Shown here: in pieces, positions 5,374 to 43,845 of the stretch
How positions within the stretch are numbered: the stretch's first letter is position 1
How the letters are laid out: each line of letters starts with the position of its first letter
Assembly (NCBI GenBank): GCA_022508985.1
Contig: JAFLUA010000010.1
Location: forward strand, 7,476 to 71,475
DNA length: 64,000 nucleotides
Source: Muribaculaceae bacterium
GTDB taxonomy: Bacteria; Bacteroidota; Bacteroidia; Bacteroidales; Muribaculaceae
Reading direction: 5' to 3'
Made by a program: the position numbers and the translations under genes
Notes under the pieces: generated by a model
Seen by the model: the letters and a program-made list of their open reading frames with translations, nothing else
Told to the model about the DNA's origin: nothing
The model's database searches: none

Positions 5374-6068
5374 CTTTATATGCTTTAATTGTTATAATAA
5401 TACTTTGCAAATATAGCCGCCATATGTCGCAAAATTCAATACATGTTGAATTATATGAATACGATTGTATAACCTGCCGGCTATAAGTATGCACGTATCC
5501 ATAGATGGCGTTTCACAGACCTAACTCCATCTAATGATAGATTACAAATGGTAAATTTTGCTAATTGTCTCATATGGCGATTTTTACAAGAGTTCTCTTA
5601 GGCTACCAATCGGAGATTTTTTTAACTTGAGTTATATATACAAAAGCGGGTTGCCATCCTTGCACTCTTGAAGGTATCGCCAAACACCTGAACACTGCAC
5701 GGAGTAGCAACCCTATTTTTATAGAGTTACTTCCGCGCCTTATGTGTTCTTTGTTAAACTGGCGATTTATCAAGAGTTAAGGCACGTTTTCATTATTTCA
5801 TTAACCGTCTACTCTAAGACAATGCAAAAATAATAAGAATTCTTAGATTTGCTATAATTTCGTGCCTTTTGTTTTTTATATTTATCGTTAGAGCCATTTC
5901 GCAATATGATTTCATAATACAGTCGTAATTTTACGGTGACTTAATTTATTTGATAACGCCCGATTATGTCTCGGAAAGATTGAAATCGCAGATATCCATA
6001 ATCTTTTATTTTGTTTTCTATCAAAAAAGAATTAATTTTGTTGCATTATTAATTGAAAATATAGAATT

Positions 6069-20343: not shown

Positions 20344-20535
20344 TTAGGACGCTTGTTTAGCAAGAACGACGCTTTGGACCTCTATAAAATATACCATGCC
20401 CAAAGATGCCGCATACCATTTACTATACTCAATGGCTTTGTCAGCGGTGCCGACTTCGCCCGGTATCTTCAACGATAGTTCGACCCAGTTTACGGTTAAA
20501 GCTATGGCAACAACAAGATTTAATCCGGCATCCAA
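20344..20535 (-). CDS. Small hypothetical protein (63 aa), start overlaps the stop of the nucleotidyltransferase gene by 16 nt
   Basis: ORF only; ATG embedded in ..TGGATGCCGGATTAA. Could be a gene fragment. Confidence 0.3.
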   Translation of the reverse strand: MDAGLNLVVAIALTVNWVELSLKIPGEVGTADKAIEYSKWYAASLGMVYFIEVQSVVLAKQAS

Positions 20536-21146
20536 TAAGCGCCTCCTTCTTTACGATTTTTTAATACCCACTCTCGCAACTCTGCGAGAGTTTCTATTTT
20601 ATCTTCCATTACTGCCTGATAATATTCCACGCCATGAATAATTTCATCCTCCGGCGTTTCATATTTCAACCTCAAAATCGTATCTCTTTGAATATCCGTA
20701 AGATTTCGCTCTATTTTATCGGCCATTAGTTCAAAGAACCCATCATATTGAGTACCACTCTCAATATGAATAATATCTAATTGCCAAGTCCGACCATCAA
20801 AGTCTTCATACTTAATATGCCAAGCAATACAGTGTTCATCTGTATATAGCCCATTTATACATTTTAATTCTTTGGCTCTTTTATCTTTCGCAATCTGAGA
20901 AGCAATTTGAAAACTGAATTCTTCGGTAATACCCGAAGAATAGACATGGAGGTCAATATCAAGGTGCTTTACCAGTAATTTCATGGCCAAAGAGCCTATT
21001 AAATTTACTTTGCACCCATATTTTTCCCACAATTCAACTATTTGTAATTCCTTGAGGATTTCAAAAGCCCTTTTCTGATTTCGTTGTGCTATTACTTCGT
21101 AATCTTTCATCTTTTTAGTGTCAAATAAATCGGTAAAGTTACACAA
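20520..21146 (-). CDS. Pol-beta superfamily nucleotidyltransferase-domain protein
   Basis: G-S-x10-D-x-D motif (IGSLAMKLLVKHLDIDLHV); 208 aa; subfamily not recognised. Confidence 0.65.
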   Translation of the reverse strand: MCNFTDLFDTKKMKDYEVIAQRNQKRAFEILKELQIVELWEKYGCKVNLIGSLAMKLLVKHLDIDLHVYSSGITEEFSFQIASQIAKDKRAKELKCINGLYTDEHCIAWHIKYEDFDGRTWQLDIIHIESGTQYDGFFELMADKIERNLTDIQRDTILRLKYETPEDEIIHGVEYYQAVMEDKIETLAELREWVLKNRKEGGAYWMPD

Positions 21147-21371
21147 ATTCTGTCTTTTTGAGCCTGGTCGAACCTATTTAATTTTGTGGTAAAGAAATTT
21201 TTAGAGTAAAAATTATGGACCACAAACTCACTAAATAGTTCGGCCTATGGCTTAACTCGCCCGACGACGAAAGAGATTATCGTGTCGGTGCGGTTTTACT
21301 TTCGGCGCTGAACATCCGAAAGAAAATAACATCTTCTTCTATTACGATTTCGTCACAACCGGTGCCACGAT

Positions 21372-21475
21372 GATTTCAATAAAAACTTGTTGCTTCCAGC
21401 GAGTGGCTCAAGCTCCGCGATGTGTGCATATTCCGCGCGATCGATTGTCCGGTGTTCTTAATCCTTTGTGATTAA
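21372..21475 (+). repeat. Repeat copy D: ~100-bp 3' stub of the W-X-Y module (frameshifted tail of ORF Y)
   Basis: ..EWLKLRDVCIFRAIDCPVFL.. in one frame. There is a 16-nt identity CGATTGTCCGGTGTTC with copy A (40036-40051) and a 1-nt deletion relative to A. Confidence 0.55.
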
Positions 21476-21486
21476 AAAATAATACT

Positions 21487-21494
21487 TACCTTTG
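21487..21494 (+). promoter_or_regulatory. Bacteroidetes -7 box TACCTTTG, 4 nt upstream of the ATG of the TfoX-like gene
   Basis: Matches TAnnTTTG. Confidence 0.45.
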
Positions 21495-21498
21495 CATT

Positions 21499-21813
21499 AT
21501 GGCTTGTTCACAGGAATATATAGATTTTATATGTGATGTTCTCGCTCCACTTGGAGAAGTCCGTTCTCGCAAGATGATGGGTGATTACGTCATATATGTT
21601 AACGAGAAATGCGTTATCACTGCTTGTGATAATAATGCATTTGTAAAGAAACTTGACTGTATTGCATCATTAATGTCGGACGCTGAAATCGGTTGCCCAT
21701 ACGAGGGAGCGAAAGAAGCATATATACTTGATTTTGCCGACCAACGTAAAGCAAGAGAAGTCATATCTATTCTGTGGGAGGCTTTGCCTTTCCCAAAGAA
21801 AAAGAAGAAATAG
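21499..21813 (+). CDS. TfoX/Sxy N-terminal-domain family protein
   Basis: 104 aa; RKMMGDYVIYVNEKCVITACDNNAFVKK resembles the TfoX_N core (KKMFGG.. LYLK). Confidence 0.6.
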   Translation: MACSQEYIDFICDVLAPLGEVRSRKMMGDYVIYVNEKCVITACDNNAFVKKLDCIASLMSDAEIGCPYEGAKEAYILDFADQRKAREVISILWEALPFPKKKKK

Positions 21814-22114
21814 TTGTCATTTCGTACCCAAGATACGGTCTATATCTTTGCTACCATCGCCTTGGCGCTTTGCCCCGCAAAGAACCTTACATGAGCGAAT
21901 GGGATAGCGAAGTCATCGGCTTGCCGCTTTCGTAGCTAAGCGGAGGAAGAACGCCAACGGCTCTATCCTCGAACTCCGTAACGTCATGTCACTTCGATAC
22001 GACTTTTACGGAGGTTGGCGAAACGTCAAAATCCTTTCGTCGGGCGAGTGTCGCAGAATCCGCGACGTCTGTATTTTCCGTGTTAATTCCCTCGAAGTGT
22101 TCCTTTAATCACAA
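21810..22114 (+). repeat. Repeat copy B: internally deleted W-X-Y module (5' ~75-nt conserved segment joined to a start-less 3' part of ORF Y)
   Basis: 21810-21885 is about 88% identical to 41743-41818. 21915-22108 aligns with 42306-42478 and with 39908-40057. The frame encoding ..RLAAFVAKRRKNANGSILELRNVMSLRYDFYGGWRNVKILSSGECRRIRDVCIFRVNSLEVFL has no start codon. Confidence 0.65.
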
Positions 22115-22142
22115 TCTTTTGGACTATCTCGTAACGAATGAG

Positions 22143-22150
22143 TAACTTTG
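22143..22150 (+). promoter_or_regulatory. Bacteroidetes -7 box TAACTTTG, 4 nt upstream of the ATG of the 22155 gene
   Basis: Matches TAnnTTTG. Confidence 0.45.
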
Positions 22151-22154
22151 CGAT

Positions 22155-22565
22155 ATGAATAAACGACAGCAACTTAAATTTTGCGATTGGACGTTACTAT
22201 TTCTTATGATAGTAACTCTTGCATCAAGTATTCAACTTGAAGTATCTGATAGCAGAAGCACAACATTCATTTGTCTTCACGCTATTATCGCATCTGTTTT
22301 TATTGGTTTTGTCGTTTATCACATTATATTACATTTTGGATCAAATAGATGGTTTTTTAAGTTCAGTAAACTTAAAAGCAGCGTTACACGTTTATTATGG
22401 TGGATAACTACAATTACAATTATTTCGGCTATTGTTGCTTTCATTCATTGGATAACTACATTTACTCATTCTCCCATTGGAGGGGTACACGGTAAAATAG
22501 GCTTCCTCATGATTTTGTTTGCAATAATTCATACCATAAAGAGAGCTGCTTTCTTCAAACGATAA
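22155..22565 (+). CDS. Four-TM membrane protein with conserved histidines (DUF4405-like)
   Basis: 136 aa with 4 predicted TM helices, each carrying His (..YHIILHFG.., ..FIHWITTFTH.., ..IIHTIKR). Confidence 0.5.
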   Translation: MNKRQQLKFCDWTLLFLMIVTLASSIQLEVSDSRSTTFICLHAIIASVFIGFVVYHIILHFGSNRWFFKFSKLKSSVTRLLWWITTITIISAIVAFIHWITTFTHSPIGGVHGKIGFLMILFAIIHTIKRAAFFKR

Positions 22566-22601: not shown

Positions 22602-22603
22602 TG

Positions 22604-22691
22604 CGGAGTGAGGGGGATTCGAACCCCCGATACGCTTTTGGCGTATACACGCTTTCCAGGCGTGCCTCTTCAACCACTCGAGCATCACTCC
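22604..22691 (-). tRNA. tRNA-Ser (anticodon GGA), class II with a long variable arm
   Basis: The reverse complement reads GGAGTGATGCTCGAGTGGTTGAAGAGGCACGCCTGGAAAGCGTGTATACGCCAAAAGCGTATCGGGGGTTCGAATCCCCCTCACTCCG. It has a 7-bp acceptor stem, anticodon loop CTGGAAA, T-loop GGTTCGAATCC, and no encoded CCA. Confidence 0.9.
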
Positions 22692-37999: not shown

Positions 38000-39241
38000 A
38001 TGCAAAACATAGAAATAATACTGATAAACATAACCGGGGCCGATCGTCCCGGCGTAACTTCCGCACTAACCGAAATACTGGCCCGACATGAGGCGCAGAT
38101 TCTCGATATCGGTCAAGCCGACATCCACCACTCTTTGTCGCTGGGTATAATGTTCAGAACAACACCCGATCGCTCCGGTGACATAATGAAAGATTTATTA
38201 TTTAAGTGCTATGAGCTCAACGTCAAAATACGCTTTTCGCCGGTAACGATTGAAGACTATGAAGCTTGGGTCTCTCGACAAGGAAAAAACAGGTGGATTA
38301 TTACAATATTAGGCCGACAGCTCACCGCTAAGCATATTGCAATGGTGACTGAAGAAATAGCCCGTCAAGAGCTAAATATCGATGGTATACAACGTCTTAC
38401 CGGACGTATGCCCTTGAGCGCCGATGAAGAGCCGAGATCGAAATCGTGTGTTGAATTTTCTGTGCGCGGCAACCCTATCAGCCATAGCGCTATGCAACAC
38501 AGATTTATGCAGATATCACAGCAAGAAGAGTTCGATATCTCGCTACAAGAAGACAATGTATTCCGACGCTGTCGCCGCCTTATTTGTTTTGATATGGATT
38601 CAACTCTTATTGAAACAGAAGTAATCGACGAACTTGCCGTACGCGCCGGCGTTGGCGATAAAGTCAAGGCTATAACAGAATCGGCCATGCGTGGCGAAAT
38701 TGATTTCTGCGAAAGTTTCAAAAAGCGTATTGCACTCTTGGAAGGCCTCGACGAAAGCGTTTTGCGTGATATCGCAGAAAACTTACCCATCACCGAAGGT
38801 GTTGAGAGAATGATGCAAGTACTAAAGCGCACCGGTTATAAGACAGCAATATTATCAGGCGGCTTCACTTATTTCGGCAACTATCTCAAGCAAAAATTCG
38901 GTTTTGATTATGTATATGCCAACGAATTAGAGATTGTCGACGGGAAACTTACAGGCCGCTATATCGGCGATATTGTCGATGGCAAACGCAAGGCCGAACT
39001 CCTTCGTATAATTGCACAAGTAGAAAACATCAACATTGCCCAAACAATTGCTGTCGGCGACGGCGCTAACGACCTACCAATGCTATCGACCGCCGGTTTG
39101 GGAATAGCATTCCATGCCAAGCCTAAAGTTAAGCAGACAGCACGGCAATCGATTTCTACCATAGGGCTTGATGGCGTTTTATATTTCTTGGGCTTCAAAG
39201 ATAGTTTTATTGGAGAGACACCGGCCAGTAATGTTGAATAA
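38000..39241 (+). CDS. serB: Phosphoserine phosphatase with N-terminal ACT domains
   Basis: HAD motifs FDMDSTLI and GDGANDLPML. ATG 38000 is preferred because a TAACTTTG box (37968-37975) lies too close to the listed 37979 start. Confidence 0.85.
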   Translation: MQNIEIILINITGADRPGVTSALTEILARHEAQILDIGQADIHHSLSLGIMFRTTPDRSGDIMKDLLFKCYELNVKIRFSPVTIEDYEAWVSRQGKNRWIITILGRQLTAKHIAMVTEEIARQELNIDGIQRLTGRMPLSADEEPRSKSCVEFSVRGNPISHSAMQHRFMQISQQEEFDISLQEDNVFRRCRRLICFDMDSTLIETEVIDELAVRAGVGDKVKAITESAMRGEIDFCESFKKRIALLEGLDESVLRDIAENLPITEGVERMMQVLKRTGYKTAILSGGFTYFGNYLKQKFGFDYVYANELEIVDGKLTGRYIGDIVDGKRKAELLRIIAQVENINIAQTIAVGDGANDLPMLSTAGLGIAFHAKPKVKQTARQSISTIGLDGVLYFLGFKDSFIGETPASNVE

Positions 39242-39661
39242 AAACAAAAGAAATACAATTAATTACAGCACCTCAGAAGCCTGATAGTGCAATCTTCAAA
39301 ATCCTATATTTTCCCAACTTTTACCCCTTTCTCGCTTGACTCGGCTCGTAAGTTCTATTTCGTCAACTGCTTCAACATCGTTGAACAGCTGCCGCTTGTC
39401 TGCTCCACGACTGACAAGATAAGCTCCGACCGCTCCGTGGCGGTTATAGGTCGTGGCGCACAATTCTACGACGTTACCAACTCCAAGGAGTATGAGACCG
39501 AAACCGGACCTTTGACTTCCGACGAGTGCCGTCTTATTGAGCAAATGCTCCAATCGCCAAAGGTCAGGATACAATGAGGCTTCGAGTCGGATGTCGAGGA
39601 AGATTTCTTTGGTCATTGTTTATCTTTTAAGAAGTCCAAAGCGCTTCGCGATAACGACGCC

Positions 39662-39820
39662 ATGTTTGAAATTCTCATTACCGACTTCACTTGTGAGTTG
39701 TCGAACTCCGAACTTAACAAGGTCAAGTTCACATGGCAGTTTGCGGAGGCTACTCCGAAACTCAATCTTCCGACTACTCCGAGAATATTCAACTCCGTTT
39801 ATAACCCTGTCTATTCGTAA
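39662..39820 (+). CDS. Small ORF X (52 aa), ends ..RIFNSVYNPVYS
   Basis: Below the ORF-track cutoff. Its C-terminal codons are conserved with copy C (GIFNDKFNPVYS, stop 42222-42224), with synonymous changes gtc/gtt, tat/tac and tcg/agc. The frame is open back to 39578. Confidence 0.35.
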   Translation: MFEILITDFTCELSNSELNKVKFTWQFAEATPKLNLPTTPRIFNSVYNPVYS

Positions 39821-39823
39821 CCA

Positions 39824-40057
39824 ATGGCTCGCTCGATAGATATATCCACAGCTCGGCACATCCTTAACTCCGGCGACCCTGTCGATATTTCCGTTTGGAA
39901 ATCCGATGGCTCTATCCTCGAACTCCGTAACGTCATTTCTATTCGCTACGACTTTTACGGAGGTTGGAGAAATGTCAAAATCCTTGCTTCCGGCGAGTGC
40001 AGAAAATTGAGAGACATCTGCATTTTCCGCGTGAACGATTGTCCGGTGTTCCTTTAA
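39824..40057 (+). CDS. Small conserved hypothetical protein Y (77 aa): ..SGDPVDISVWKSDGSILELRNVISIRYDFYGGWRNVKILASGECRKLRDICIFRVNDCPVFL
   Basis: ATG lies 3 nt after the X stop. 12 of 21 differing codons versus copy B are synonymous in this frame. It is followed by its own palindromic terminator. Confidence 0.6.
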   Translation: MARSIDISTARHILNSGDPVDISVWKSDGSILELRNVISIRYDFYGGWRNVKILASGECRKLRDICIFRVNDCPVFL

Positions 40058-40080
40058 TCACAACGTTGTGATTATTTTTA
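40056..40080 (+). terminator. Perfect palindrome AATCACAAC/GTTGTGATT followed by ATTTTTA
   Basis: Read directly; overlaps the Y stop codon. Confidence 0.55.
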
Positions 40081-40199
40081 TAAATTTATTTATGTCATAA
40101 TAGTCTTTTCGCTATATTGTTTTTCCTTTAAGCTCCATTTTTACGCAAAATGTGAAAATTTCAGAGTAAAATTGAAAACATTATTAGATAAAAATATCG

Positions 40200-40207
40200 T
40201 AACTTTG
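40200..40207 (+). promoter_or_regulatory. Bacteroidetes -7 box TAACTTTG upstream of the SDR gene
   Basis: Matches TAnnTTTG, 19 nt before ATG 40227. Confidence 0.45.
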
Positions 40208-40226
40208 CATTGAAAATTAACTGTAT

Positions 40227-41060
40227 ATGAGAAAAGATGTAATGATATTGACCGGTGCAGGTCAAATAGGTATGGCGATTGCCCGAAGAATGGGATATGG
40301 AATGAAAATCATTATCGGAGACAAAAGTCTTAATAATGCACAGACCATTGCAAAGATAATGAATGACGCCGGTTTTGATTGTGAAGCCGTCGAAACCGAC
40401 ATTTCTTCAAGAGAGTCAATCTTAAATATCATAAATGTTGCCAAAAGTTACGGCGATATAAAAATGCTTGTTAATGCCGCCGGGGTTTCTCCCAGTCAGG
40501 CTCCGATTGAAGCCATTTTGAAAGTTGACCTTTACGGCACTGCCGTTTTGCTTGAAGAAGTCGGGAAAGTTATCTCGGAAGGAGGTACGGGAGTAACTAT
40601 ATCCAGTCAATCGGGTTATCGGATGCCGGCACTAACTCCACAAGAAGATGAACTATTGGCGACAACCCCAACCGATGAATTATTAAAGCTCGACATTCTT
40701 CAGCCGTCTGCCATACGCGACACCCTCCACGCCTATCAAATGGCGAAACGGTGTAATGTGAAACGAGTGATGGCCGAAGCCGTGAAATGGGGAGAAAGAG
40801 GTGCGCGAATTAACTCTATTTCTCCAGGCATTATCGTTACTCCGCTTGCTATTGATGAATTTAATGGTCCAAGAGGCGATTTCTACAAAAATATGTTTGC
40901 CAAATGTCCGGCTCGTAGACCAGGCACTGCGGATGAAGTTGCCAATGTTGCCGAACTTCTGATGCGTCCGCAAGGAGCTTTTGTCACAGGAGCAGACTTC
41001 TTGATAGATGGTGGAGCTACCGCATCATATTTCTATGGACAATTACGACCTCAAAACTAA
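40227..41060 (+). CDS. SDR-family oxidoreductase
   Basis: TGAGQIGMAIARR (TGxxxGxG), catalytic YQMAK (YxxxK), and the NAAG motif. Confidence 0.85.
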   Translation: MRKDVMILTGAGQIGMAIARRMGYGMKIIIGDKSLNNAQTIAKIMNDAGFDCEAVETDISSRESILNIINVAKSYGDIKMLVNAAGVSPSQAPIEAILKVDLYGTAVLLEEVGKVISEGGTGVTISSQSGYRMPALTPQEDELLATTPTDELLKLDILQPSAIRDTLHAYQMAKRCNVKRVMAEAVKWGERGARINSISPGIIVTPLAIDEFNGPRGDFYKNMFAKCPARRPGTADEVANVAELLMRPQGAFVTGADFLIDGGATASYFYGQLRPQN

Positions 41061-41073
41061 CAAAATAACGAGT

Positions 41074-41721
41074 ATGATTAAGAAATTTATCATCGGTCTT
41101 TGCTCAATTTTTAGCTTAACCGCTTGTGCTTCAAACTCAGACCAAAATAACGAAAACAATACCATTCAACAATCAGAAGAAATAAAAATGGACGGAAAAA
41201 AATTAGTAGTTTATTTCTCCCATAAAGGCGAAAACTACAATGTAGGTTATATCGAGAAAGGCAATACGGCTATCATAGCAGATATGATTGCAGAAGCCAC
41301 AGGCGCCGACAAATTCGAGATTGTGCCTGAAAAGGAATATCCAGTTAATTACAGTGAATGTATCGAAGTAGCACAACAGGAAAAACGAGACAATGCACGT
41401 CCCGCTGTCAAGGGAGACATCGCCATTGAGGATTACGATATAATTTTTATCGGTTATCCTAACTGGTGGGGCGAGGTGCCGATGTGTGTTTATGCTTTCA
41501 TCGAAAAACACGACTGGAACGGCAAAACCGTTATTCCTTTTATAACTCATGAAGGTAGCGGAATGGGTGGCACCGACAGCAAGATTGCAAAGGCTACGAC
41601 CGGCTCTAATACTCTCGTTGGCAAAGGGCTTGCCGTTCAGGGTAAAGTTGCACAGAAAAATCGTAAATCCGCACAAAAAAGTGTTGTAAATTGGCTGACA
41701 GGGCTTAATGTTAATAAATAA
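41074..41721 (+). CDS. Flavodoxin-like lipoprotein
   Basis: ORF 41008.. trimmed to ATG 41074 (MIKKFIIGLCSIFSLTACAS lipobox). Motifs LVVYFSHKGENY and FIGYPNWWG. Confidence 0.75.
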   Translation: MIKKFIIGLCSIFSLTACASNSDQNNENNTIQQSEEIKMDGKKLVVYFSHKGENYNVGYIEKGNTAIIADMIAEATGADKFEIVPEKEYPVNYSECIEVAQQEKRDNARPAVKGDIAIEDYDIIFIGYPNWWGEVPMCVYAFIEKHDWNGKTVIPFITHEGSGMGGTDSKIAKATTGSNTLVGKGLAVQGKVAQKNRKSAQKSVVNWLTGLNVNK

Positions 41722-41742
41722 TTAGTTCGTTTCGCAAGTCAT

Positions 41743-42507
41743 ATAGTTGTCTTTTCGTACCCAAGAGACTGTCCATATCTTTGCTGTCATCGCCTTGGCG
41801 CTTTGCCTTGGCAAAGAATAAAGCAAAAAAGATATGGACTTTTTAGATTCTAACAATTCCGGATGCGCTCGGCAAAGCGCAAGCGAACTTGGCTCTGCAC
41901 TCACTGCACGGAAAGTCTTAATTTTAACTCCGTCGAGAACGTGCCCGGCTTCGAGGCTCGGGCAGCGTTCACTGTCAACTCTGCAACTGTGTTCACTCCC
42001 GTTGGTCGTGGCTGCTTCGCGGTCAAGGAAGACGTTGACATCGTGCCGATCATTATTGACGACACATTAAGTTATGTGCTGTGGGTGGCGACAACCAACT
42101 GCCCTATAACGTCATCGACCTTATAGAGAGGGACGAAACCCTCTCTACGTGCCAAGTGTTCAACGCCGAGGTCTGCTTCGGGTACGGTATCTTCAACGAT
42201 AAGTTCAACCCTGTTTACAGCTAAAGCTATATCACAAGAGGTTCGCATTACCACCGTACGAAAAATGCTCAACAGCGGTGACCCCGTCGATATTACGGCA
42301 TGGTTATCGGCTTGCCGCTTTCGTAGCTAAGCGGAGAAAGAACGCCGACGGCTTAATCGTTCACCACAAGCGTTGTATATCACTGCGTTACAACTTCTAC
42401 GGAGGTTGGCGCAACATCAAAATCCTTGCTTACGGCGAGTGCCGCAAGCTCCGTGACGATGCATTTTCCGCGTTGTAACGCGTGAAACGATTGGTGGTGT
42501 TTTTATA
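41743..42507 (+). pseudogene. Repeat copy C: full-length but disrupted W-X-Y module with the conserved 5' segment
   Basis: The 5' 75 nt is shared with copy B. The W-like frame is 41863-42126 (TAG). X-like ends NPVYS at 42224. Y is split by a frameshift near 42300-42315 (..MLNSGDPVDITAW / ..RLAAFVAKRRKNADGLIV..SLRYNFYGGWRNIKILAYGECRKLRD) and has a 10-nt insertion in its tail. Confidence 0.65.
41771..41844 (+). terminator. Nested hairpin: 12-bp perfect arms GTCCATATCTTT / AAAGATATGGAC enclosing CTTTGCC-TT-GGCAAAG, followed by TTTTT
   Basis: Arms at 41771-41782 and 41828-41839, inner palindrome 41801-41816, T-run 41840-44. It could terminate the flavodoxin cassette. The 5' arm also contains a TATCTTTG -7-like box. 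Confidence 0.45.
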
Positions 42508-42539
42508 GCGGCAGTTGCCTATTTCTCAGCAAAATTTCC

Positions 42540-42547
42540 TAATTTTG
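42540..42547 (+). promoter_or_regulatory. Bacteroidetes -7 box TAATTTTG upstream of ssb
   Basis: Matches TAnnTTTG. Confidence 0.4.
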
Positions 42548-42626
42548 CAGAATAAAAAAAACTAAACCCGATAGCTTGACAAGTCAGGGGCTACCGGGAA
42601 TCAACATTGCAAAAATACATAACAGA

Positions 42627-42959
42627 ATGAACAAAGTAATACTGCTCGGAAATGTAGGACAAGACCCGCGAATGCGTATGGTTGACAGTAGCCAGGTGGC
42701 AGAGTTCAGTCTTGCAACAAACGAGCGTCGCAGCACACGCGCTGCCGACGGGTCGATTGTAGAGCTACCCGAATTGACCGAATGGCACAATATTGTCATG
42801 TGGGGCCGTGCCGCCGAATTTGCCGAAAAATATATACGCAAAGGTTCTCGCCTGCTGATCGAAGGGAAAATACGTACTCGCACGTGGGAAGACCGCAACG
42901 CTATAAAACGTAATATCACAGAGATATATGTTGACTCATTTGAATTATTACCACGCTAA
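42627..42959 (+). CDS. ssb: Single-stranded DNA-binding protein, short form (110 aa, OB fold only)
   Basis: ORF 42576.. trimmed to ATG 42627 (MNKVILLGNVGQDP..). Ends ..YVDSFELLPR with no Gly/Pro linker or acidic tail. Confidence 0.85.
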   Translation: MNKVILLGNVGQDPRMRMVDSSQVAEFSLATNERRSTRAADGSIVELPELTEWHNIVMWGRAAEFAEKYIRKGSRLLIEGKIRTRTWEDRNAIKRNITEIYVDSFELLPR

Positions 42960-42972
42960 AGCATAATTTTAT

Positions 42973-43845
42973 ATGAAGATGAACGGACGCCGCCTCAGCG
43001 GCAATGTTGAAGACCGTCGCGGCATAAGCGGTGGCAAAATAGGCCTCGGTGGAGGCATTATAGGTGTTATTATCGTAGCCGCCATTACATTGTTTTCCGG
43101 AGGAAATATTGGAGATGTACTCACAAATGTTATGGGCAGCAATATGATGCAAGCGAACTATGCATCATCGGAATATCAACCAACAGAAGAAGATGAACGC
43201 CTTGCAACCTTCGCTTCGCAAATATTGGCAGGGACGGAAGACGTATGGACTCAAGTCTTCAGGCAGAAAGGTTGGGGCGAATATAAATGTCCTAAATTGG
43301 TATTGTTTAGTGGTAGCGTTAACTCCGGATGCGGCAGCGCGACAGCTCAAACAGGTCCATTCTACTGCTCTGCCGATCAAACGGTTTATATAGACCTCGA
43401 CTTTTTCAAAGAAATGCCGAAATCGATAGGCGCCGGTGGCGATTTTGCTTATGCATATGTGATAGCGCACGAGGTCGGACACCATGTGCAGTATCTATTG
43501 GGCACACTCAATCAAGCTCACTCATTAATGTCGAGATTAAGCGAAAGAGAATCAAATCAGATAAGCGTACGCCTGGAGCTACAAGCCGATTTCTACGCCG
43601 GTGTATGGGCATCGCTTGACAATAAGATGTTTGGTTCGATCGAAGAAGGCGACATCGAAAATGCTATCAATGCAGCCTCCAAAATCGGCGACGATTACTT
43701 GCAGCGAAAAGCGTATGGAGGTGAGATGCCCGATAGCTTCAACCATGGCCGCTCAGAACAACGCGTTCGTTGGCTAAGTAAAGGCATTCAGACCGGAAAT
43801 CCCGACTACGGCGACACCTTCACGCCCGCCTATTCTCAGTTATGA
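42973..43845 (+). CDS. ypfJ: Neutral zinc metallopeptidase (YpfJ family)
   Basis: N-terminal TM and HEVGHHVQ zinc motif. Confidence 0.8.
   Translation: MKMNGRRLSGNVEDRRGISGGKIGLGGGIIGVIIVAAITLFSGGNIGDVLTNVMGSNMMQANYASSEYQPTEEDERLATFASQILAGTEDVWTQVFRQKGWGEYKCPKLVLFSGSVNSGCGSATAQTGPFYCSADQTVYIDLDFFKEMPKSIGAGGDFAYAYVIAHEVGHHVQYLLGTLNQAHSLMSRLSERESNQISVRLELQADFYAGVWASLDNKMFGSIEEGDIENAINAASKIGDDYLQRKAYGGEMPDSFNHGRSEQRVRWLSKGIQTGNPDYGDTFTPAYSQL

Follow-up and report, generated by a model that had tools for sequence, protein, structure and literature searches.

A probable defective prophage remnant spanning a phage moron slot between serB and ssb of a Muribaculaceae bacterium

The window analyzed here is a 64,000-nucleotide (nt) stretch of a Muribaculaceae bacterium (contig JAFLUA010000010.1, positions 7,476 to 71,475), and this report concerns the interval between two of its genes, serB (ending at 39241) and ssb (42627-42959). 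The interval holds genes for a short-chain dehydrogenase/reductase (SDR; Pfam adh_short_C2, E 1.8e-29) and a flavodoxin with a lipobox (Flavodoxin_4, E 1.9e-23), with small open reading frames (ORFs) on both sides. An earlier note on this DNA had read these flanks as two diverged copies, A and C, of one module of three small ORFs (W, X and Y) bounding an inserted cargo. Its coordinates and gene order were reproduced (Table 1), and the two boxes that it mentioned are present as TAnnTTTG boxes at 40200 and 42540. The flanks, however, are not two copies of one three-ORF module, but remnants of three phage genes, referred to here as p368, Y and portal.

To the left of the cargo, tblastn matched 39320-39817 to full-length phage p368 with 48% identity over 157 amino acids (aa; E 1e-40), covering the C-terminal 40% of that protein. 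The remnant is interrupted by an in-frame TGA (39575-39577) where homologs have TGG (Trp), and it ends at the natural p368 stop codon, TAA (39818-39820). W, X and Y of copy A share a single reading frame in which this TGA and this TAA are the separators; therefore, W and X are not separate genes, and copy A consists of a single truncated pseudogene and, after it, the genuine gene Y. Neither these three ORFs nor the antisense ORFs had a match in Pfam, NCBIfam or PHROG, and the predicted structure of the C-terminal part of p368 was unusable (predicted local distance difference test score, pLDDT, of 54). Coding on the minus strand (ORFs 39296-39616 and 39620-39859) was considered and rejected, since the plus-strand frame matches p368 with E 1e-40 and the antisense matches are weaker echoes. 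The public gene call at this place is a 106-aa minus-strand ORF (39296-39616, equivalent to L164 8318-8638), opposite the coding strand of the p368 pseudogene. This ORF is almost certainly not a gene, and the call is corrected here.

The Y gene of copy A is intact. Its homologs (n = 329 at E<=1e-3) are nearly all 76-77 aa long and 74-88% identical, none of them is annotated, and they belong to Muribaculaceae phages and prophages recovered from Muribaculaceae genomes and from mouse and human gut metagenomes. The AlphaFold model of Y (pLDDT 84) comprises one helix and a small beta-barrel and had no significant match in PDB or BFVD. The top PDB match was the Rho inhibitor YaeO/Rof (E 0.27, template modeling score [TM] 0.49, 22% identity), and no Pfam match was obtained. 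Because this similarity is not significant, Y was not assigned to the Rof/YaeO family. It is treated here as a conserved gene, putatively of the head or packaging region. The palindrome that overlaps the Y stop codon, detected as a blastn minus-strand self-match and by reading the sequence, may terminate transcription between Y and the cargo unit, although a simple terminator scan did not call it. An AT-rich stretch separates the palindrome and its T-run from the box at 40200, which lies 20 nt upstream of the SDR gene. Judging from these motifs, expression of the cargo is probably still driven by its own TAACTTTG promoter.

To the right of the cargo, the portal leader starts 22 nt past the flavodoxin stop codon and reads GTCTTTTCGTAC...GTCCATATCTTTG, then ATGGAC. 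It carries the motif GTCTTTTCG..GTCCATAnCTTTG, which is also the motif of the leader that all cargo-bearing phages have directly past the stop codon of the cargo, and its segment 41743-41818 is 88-91% identical to 21810-21884, elsewhere in the window. The "W" and most of the "X" of copy C correspond to portal residues ~10-100 (41908-42200), read in two frames, with a joint E of 3e-27 in tblastn against phage portals and identities of 54% at 41917-42105 and 67% at 42084-42200. One cause of the disruption is a 59-nt hairpin repeat, present as a single copy in the window, deletion of which restores the portal reading frame (MDFLDSNSLNFNSVEN...). At portal codon ~100, the fragment is fused through a GG-AT-TTC microhomology to the tail of a p368 gene (42184-42224), which is 89% identical to another p368 remnant at 20460-20518. 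This tail is followed by a dead Y, delimited by global alignment with the Y of copy A, blastn and tblastn. The linker inserted in this dead Y was also found in phage L107 (89% over 54 nt), where it follows a truncated Y (Y').

The resemblance between copies A and C was only partly as described in the earlier note. W could not be aligned with W by BLASTP even at E<=100; the W of copy A represents p368 residues ~223-310 and that of copy C portal residues ~10-70. The match between the two X ORFs held for the last 11 residues (IFNxxxNPVYS, pairwise E 1e-4) and failed for the remainder. In contrast to W, the homology of Y was upheld by blastn, both between copies A and C (89 nt, 80%, E 4.5e-18) and between each of them and a copy near the tRNA-Ser gene (A, 159 nt, 82%, E 1e-39; C, 175 nt, 79%, E 5e-37). 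Repeat finding and blastn located a Y segment three times in the window (39898-40063, 42303-42477 and 21912-22114), and the p368 tail plus Y is the sole truly duplicated sequence between copies A and C. About 10 extra codons (TPVGRGCFAV) are present in the portal pseudogene at 41985-42015 relative to all phage portals examined, and this insertion accounts for the apparent match of the earlier note to VIGRGAQFYDV in p368.

Y was found in 49 IMG/VR viral contigs, and the order p368-Y-portal in every sufficiently long one. The phage gene order, read from the surroundings of two abundant family members, is small genes, p368 (368/369 aa), Y, a 433-442-aa portal gene, a DUF6712 gene, several genes of structural size, an Amidase_2 lysin and a PhageMin_Tail tape measure. 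The 433-442-aa protein was identified as the portal by tblastn to the annotated portals of Polaribacter phage Leef_1 (E 4e-25) and a Microcystis phage (1e-21), and by PHROG 11226 (E 7e-4). Among the phages, Y and the portal are conserved to the same degree (75-88% aa identity), whereas p368 is just 36-59% identical. A literature search returned nothing specific on this phage family or on the slot described below. A prevalent and so far undescribed phage family of Muribaculaceae is recognized here.

The place between Y and portal in these phages is a highly variable accessory slot. Of 54 phage loci, 21 have no more than 14 nt between the two genes, and the other 33 have 279-2438 nt; that is, the slot is empty in about 40% of the phages and otherwise holds one or two genes. 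The inserts in the 33 loci comprise 41 ORFs of at least 27 families, almost all on the phage strand, including Peptidase_S41, aspartyl proteases, a CarboxypepD_reg protein, a TonB-dependent receptor, an Rce1-like protein, a redoxin and a Gp49 toxin, and an SDR is the slot cargo of viral contig L123. Many cargo N-termini resemble signal peptides or membrane segments, as judged by eye from the first 70 residues rather than by prediction. An insert begins directly past the Y stop codon, often with a semi-conserved promoter block, TTCCGCTGAAAATGCGTAACTTTGC, that contains a Bacteroidota TAnnTTTG box. It ends 0-3 nt past the cargo stop codon at a conserved leader of ~65 nt (GCGTCTTTTCGC...GTCCATAACTTTG), which has a small covarying hairpin followed by ATGGAC and ~8 codons. 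The leader (GTCTTTTCG...CCATAnCTTTG) supplies a new promoter and the first ~8 portal codons; empty-slot phages are without both blocks, and their portal N-terminus differs. The left promoter block and the right leader are not copies of one motif. As read from the promoter motif, the cargo genes of the phages would be driven by their own Bacteroidota-type promoter after the Y stop codon.

The slot edges in the window are the same as in the phages, with a TAnnTTTG promoter after the Y stop codon and the end of the cargo just before the leader. Moreover, comparison of phage loci by tblastn showed that 39320-42200 keeps the segment order p368'-Y-(SDR+flavodoxin)-portal' and is collinear with one phage segment, indicating that the SDR and flavodoxin genes sit in the phage accessory slot. 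We therefore consider it very probable (roughly 85%) that the serB-ssb interval is a small defective prophage remnant of about 3.2 kb spanning a phage moron slot. The source would, with much the same confidence, be a tailed, temperate phage of a kind found widely in Muribaculaceae (gut Bacteroidales of mouse and human). So read, the interval is an ordinary prophage leftover as opposed to a novel cassette system. The view of the earlier note that conserved pieces stand at the edges of the cargo is retained, and the results support the SDR and flavodoxin genes as foreign cargo; the true edges are the Y stop codon, after the truncated p368, on the left and the portal leader with the portal 5' end on the right. 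Its suggestion of tandem accretion also fits, in that more than one unit is apparent: the arrangement looks like a first unit to which a second, more decayed one (p368 tail plus dead Y) was joined at portal codon ~100. This reading explains an odd repeat in the genome and implies that the SDR-flavodoxin pair was acquired horizontally, most likely via a phage.

The same interval was compared in related genomes. A scan for serB identified 80 related loci, six of which retain ssb, a Zn-peptidase gene and ribD downstream (serB 84-88% identical). In these nearest genomes examined, the serB-ssb interval encodes a patatin-like protein of ~765 aa and usually proC, and no relative of Y, p368, portal, SDR or flavodoxin was found there. 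The interval is thus not invariant among relatives, in keeping with the inserted DNA that the earlier note had envisaged. The patatin-like and proC genes were not found in the 64-kb window, which suggests that phage-derived DNA replaced or displaced housekeeping genes. The patatin-like/proC interval of the relatives lies at L024 1648-4775, L025 2178-4481 and L028 10342-13449 and in L029, L031 and L033, with ssb directly abutting. A phage origin of the ssb promoter region in the window was considered and rejected, as this region showed no significant similarity and resembles generic Bacteroidota promoters (family D4).

Table 1. Features of the serB-ssb interval and of the tRNA-Ser island (positions in the window)
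Feature	Position	Strand	Description
p368 pseudogene	39320..39820	+	C-terminal ~145 codons (residues ~223-368); "W" and "X" of copy A in the earlier note
Y	39824..40057	+	Intact 77-aa phage gene, between p368 and portal in every intact relative; the cargo slot begins at its stop codon (left edge)
Palindrome and T-run	40055..40074	.	AATCACAACGTTGTGATT; 20 nt, perfect, overlaps the Y stop codon
Cargo unit	40200..41721	+	TAACTTTG box 40200-40207, SDR 40227-41060, flavodoxin lipoprotein 41074-41721
Portal leader	41743..41833	+	Promoter segment with TATCTTTG box at 41776; right edge of the slot; "75-nt 5' segment" of the earlier note
Portal pseudogene	41834..42200	+	Codons 1 to ~100; broken by the 59-nt element and a frameshift near 42084-42105
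59-nt hairpin repeat	41856..41914	+	Inside the portal pseudogene; covariance model 62.9 bits, E 4e-13
p368 tail	42184..42224	+	Last ~12 codons (GIFNDKFNPVYS, then stop), fused to portal codon ~100; junction of the second partial unit
Y pseudogene	42226..42505	+	No start codon; ~37 nt inserted after Trp25 (TTATCGGCTTGCCGCTTTCGTAGCTAAGCGGAG...); 3' indels lead to a premature stop
Second relic (tRNA-Ser island)	20460..22565	+	Adjoins tRNA-Ser (22603-22691, minus strand)
p368 tail	20460-20518		tRNA-Ser island
208-aa gene	20520-21146	-	tRNA-Ser island; no family match; occupies the expected place of the Y body
Y 3' remnant	21383-21474		tRNA-Ser island
104-aa TfoX_N-like gene	21499-21813		tRNA-Ser island; sub-threshold TfoX_N match (E 2.5e-6, 27.9 bits vs cutoff 30.1)
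Portal leader	21810-21884		tRNA-Ser island
Dead Y	21912-22108		tRNA-Ser island; without codons 1-25
136-aa membrane-protein cargo	22155-22565		tRNA-Ser island; TAACTTTG box at 22143

The tRNA-Ser island repeats the build of the serB-ssb interval, and the recurrence of the module family there, claimed in the earlier note, was borne out by a p368 tail, Y remnants and a portal leader (Table 1). In addition, its 136-aa protein is 48% identical over its full length (E 1e-34) to the cargo of the Y-portal slot in viral contigs L138-L143. A search with the p368 fragment of the window retrieved truncated homologs only, all in chromosomal relics of other Muribaculaceae genomes. The L157 relic, which borders a beta-lactamase gene, consists of p368 219-368, Y, an aspartyl-protease cargo and portal 1-265, and the L162 relic of p368 181-367 and Y 1-34. 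The Duncaniella relics (L001-L008) comprise an integrase, a toxin-antitoxin pair, a p368 tail, Y', Y, a variable cargo and portal 1-51 or 1-186. All relics are centered on the slot, and their end points (p368 residues 181, 219 and ~223; portal residues 51, 106, 186 and 265) differ from relic to relic and from genome to genome, as decay and illegitimate recombination would predict.

Partial duplications of the slot flanks are also found in bona fide phages, as Y'(1-27)+Y in L107, L119 and L129 and as portal'(1-20)+cargo2+portal in L138-L143. Partial duplication is thus a normal by-product of cargo turnover among these phages. For the window, a phage with the SDR and flavodoxin genes in its slot, or two related phages successively, would have entered the chromosome. 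Two tandem or recombined phage copies might then have formed, or a phage might have integrated by a single crossover into an older p368'-Y relic. A subsequent deletion from portal codon ~100 through to the next p368 tail would yield the observed junction. The remaining prophage would have been lost through deletions at microhomologies, while the cargo and its nearest flanks were retained, presumably since the cargo was useful or neutral; Y may have stayed intact merely through its shortness.

The serB-ssb interval resembles cryptic ("grounded") prophage remnants that carry lysogenic-conversion genes (PMC6379469) in having collinear truncated or frameshifted phage genes around an intact accessory unit and in being absent from the same locus of related genomes; furthermore, one of the two window islands adjoins a tRNA gene. 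It differs from them in that it is very small, that no integrase or att repeat was found, that two partial units are joined inside the portal gene, and that relics centered on the same slot recur across several genomes. Morons (Hendrix/Juhala; PMC3594210) are independent units of a promoter, a gene and in some cases a terminator that separate two genes lying side by side in related phages. The cargo of the window corresponds to this description in its position between Y and portal (0-14 nt apart in 21 phages), its own promoter-like box and its late-gene orientation. Unlike typical morons, it occupies a slot flanked left and right by fixed regulatory blocks, one of which is a portable leader restoring the promoter and first ~8 codons of portal. 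With 27 families in 33 phages, this single site is also unusually diverse. Promoter-early stem-loop (PeSL) motifs of T4-type phages flank variable ORFs and mediate modular shuffling (PMC2839356, PMC4122927). Here, too, variable ORFs are bounded by promoter-containing motifs that recur from locus to locus, albeit not as copies of one motif on the left and right, the right leader has a small covarying hairpin, and the flank duplications are consistent with nearby recombination. However, the present phages are temperate, siphovirus-like phages of Bacteroidota with a single main slot rather than long hyperplastic regions, and the motif sequences are unrelated. The nearest annotated phage is Polaribacter phage Leef_1 (Helgolandviridae), with a homologous portal (26% identity, E 4e-25), an annotated adaptor downstream of the portal where the Muribaculaceae family has DUF6712, and a small gene just upstream of the portal whose product weakly resembles Y at the C-terminus (hhalign E 0.0015, probability 17%). 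It is very distant, with neither a p368 homolog nor cargo at that position.

Other explanations of the relics were weighed against a prophage remnant. The relics may be homology landing pads, in which the arms formed by Y and the portal 5' end recombine with incoming phages, so that cargo is swapped by double crossover and a whole phage enters by single crossover, with the promoter blocks at the slot edges as preferred crossover sites in the manner of PeSL. This idea is compatible with the prophage origin and extends it. It draws on the varied cargo ORFs that are enclosed by one common left block (TTCCGCTGAAAATGCGTAACTTTGC) and one common right leader, as in L010 and L015, which have a common left block and different ORFs, on the recurrence of relics that are always slot-centered, and on the PeSL precedent; moreover, a single crossover into a p368'-Y relic followed by deletion gives exactly Y-cargo-portal'-p368tail-Y. 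On the other hand, no phage/chromosome pair with a common cargo was found, the flank DNA of the window is only 75-88% identical to that of known phages and hence a poor substrate for homologous recombination, and the second Y and the portal arm are badly damaged. We regard it as a possible but unlikely addition; if relics did exchange cargo with phages, the slot would offer a tractable model of moron acquisition. A bolder and more doubtful version would make the Y-portal slot a dedicated cassette-exchange site, with the promoter blocks and perhaps the 59-nt hairpin as recombination substrates and the relics as reservoirs or landing pads through which host genes pass into phages and cargo into chromosomes.

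The islands could also be phage satellites or mobilizable islands that keep Y and the portal 5' end as a helper packaging signal or regulator. The conservation of Y at the level of the portal and above that of p368 is in line with this, as is Y being the only intact phage gene in the window; in addition, the L007 relic lies in an element with an HTH_17 gene and a DUF3987 primase-like gene, and the L001-L006 relics are next to an integrase. Since the window islands are without integrase, primase or regulator genes, and one of the two Y copies at serB-ssb and all copies in the tRNA-Ser island are dead, this explanation is improbable. Least probable of all is that a site-specific cassette system, whether integron-like or a small, tandemly accreting integrative element, has the module as its end or recombination site, as the earlier note had entertained in proposing a site-specific insertion target. 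The cargo boundaries are sharp, the Duncaniella Y'-Y-cargo-portal' block adjoins a tyrosine integrase, an HTH_17 protein and a Gp49/HTH toxin-antitoxin pair, and a motif of ~18 nt, TCGSCTTGSCGCTTT, is common to the portal leader and the Y insertion. Nevertheless, both flanks belong to ordinary phage genes, which adjoin each other wherever the slot is empty, the two ends (Y stop region and portal leader) are unrelated to each other, the W-W homology that such a system requires is absent, and the covariance model of the 59-nt hairpin does not match the short motif. Together with variable outer truncation points and the finding of no integrase, other recombinase or att repeat in or near either window island in searches with the Duncaniella integrase and the tRNA-Ser 3' end, these results largely refute a site-specific cassette system.

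Several observations weigh against a decayed prophage. No integrase, excisionase or att repeat was found near serB-ssb or the tRNA-Ser island; the Duncaniella integrase had no tblastn match in the window, which was not exhaustively scanned for all recombinase families. The 3' end of tRNA-Ser is not repeated in the window, nor was the tRNA-Ser sequence found in the phage loci. Among the viral contigs searched, no phage had exactly this SDR-flavodoxin pair in its slot, and the nearest copies of the pair (L153 and L154) lie in unrelated, Firmicutes-like surroundings. In two independent loci, the left end points of the truncated p368 are no more than about 5 codons apart (~223 in the window and 219 in L157), a coincidence that pure random decay does not predict. 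Furthermore, the GC profile does not clearly distinguish the cargo, the strain is present in just two samples, with one assembly breaking at repeats, and the relatives compared are related at the species or genus level.

Homologs of the SDR (75-78% identity) and the flavodoxin (45-64%) are adjacent in the IMG/VR contigs L153 (3656-9631) and L154 (270-3461). Their neighbors there, labeled from ORF translations and not from database matches, are MerR-type regulators, a carboxymuconolactone-decarboxylase-like protein, an alpha/beta hydrolase, a flavin mononucleotide (FMN) reductase, an aldo-keto reductase and a 514-aa large serine recombinase. The recurrence of the pair in these contexts indicates a horizontally mobile unit and suggests a mobile redox or detoxification gene pair common to several phyla.

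The chief by-product of the analysis is the slot architecture of an abundant phage family, with at least 27 cargo families beside the portal gene, together with its associated 59-nt structured repeat. The slot is a handy marker for following how phages move genes among the gut Bacteroidales of mouse and human. In the portal leader of cargo-bearing phages, the TAnnTTTG box is followed by a small hairpin, ~25 nt ahead of the portal ATG, in L104-L148 (for example CTTCGCTGAAAATCTCAGCAAGTT in L104 and CTTTGTGGCAAATACCACTCAGTT in L105) and in L009 (CTTTGAGCAACCAACCTCAATGTT). Its stems show compensatory changes (GCTGA/TCAGC, GTGG/CCAC, GAGC/(C)CTC and GGAGC/GCTCT), and it may be a regulatory stem-loop in the 5' untranslated region of the portal mRNA.

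Y-prime is an ORF of 42-50 aa that precedes a full Y in some phages and relics and consists of the first 22-25 residues of Y and a basic tail (…SACRFRSAAEKELRRL or …SAFSACRLKAGARCRRQNDRPQIRRL). Y-prime or its linker was located at L107 5861-5990, in L119 and L129, in L001-L008 (~5836-5990), and in the window at 42250-42335 and 21912-21950. Both dead Y copies of the window are disrupted by the Y-prime linker, and a related longer version is present in L119, L129 and the Duncaniella relics. Y-prime may be a paralog with a function of its own, or else a scar that forms repeatedly.

The covariance model of the 59-nt hairpin repeat was built from 8 copies, and 21 more copies were detected in phage loci, in both orientations and at 1-4 per locus. 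The consensus is AATCGGCTGCGCTCGGCATAGCTCAAGCAAGCTTGGCTCTGCTCTCG..TTGCACGATT, with compensatory changes in the inner stem (CAAGC/GCTTG vs GGAGC/GCTCC). Plus-strand copies are located in L144 (1684, 1882, 2400 and 3840), L106, L108, L115, L117, L126 and L127; minus-strand copies are located at L019/L020 13131 and in L114, L115, L120, L123, L128 and L133. A further copy lies at L018 17177. The copies that could be placed are intergenic or in stretches without clear ORFs. The window copy is a clean insertion at the boundary where slot cassettes meet portal. An Rfam scan of window positions 39000-43000 gave no match, and the ~18-nt motif shared by the portal leader and the Y insertion was rejected as a member of the hairpin family, for which the covariance model gives no support. 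The repeat could be a MITE-like (miniature inverted-repeat transposable element) element, a regulatory hairpin or a recombination hot spot.

A second variable region follows the DUF6712 gene, at the adaptor position, in L009-L016 (L009 9301-10893, L012 10874-11968 and L015 6860-8500). Its cargo differs by phage and includes an 80-aa protein with an aspartyl protease, a 126-aa protein, an acetyltransferase and an LRR_5 protein. Moreover, a stretch of ~2 kb without convincing ORFs lies upstream of the small early genes (L012 2300-4100 and L144 1600-4400), where the listed ORFs are Arg/Pro-rich, overlapping and on both strands. The stretch in L144 holds four copies of the 59-nt hairpin repeat, and this region may represent an origin, serve in packaging or give rise to non-coding RNA.

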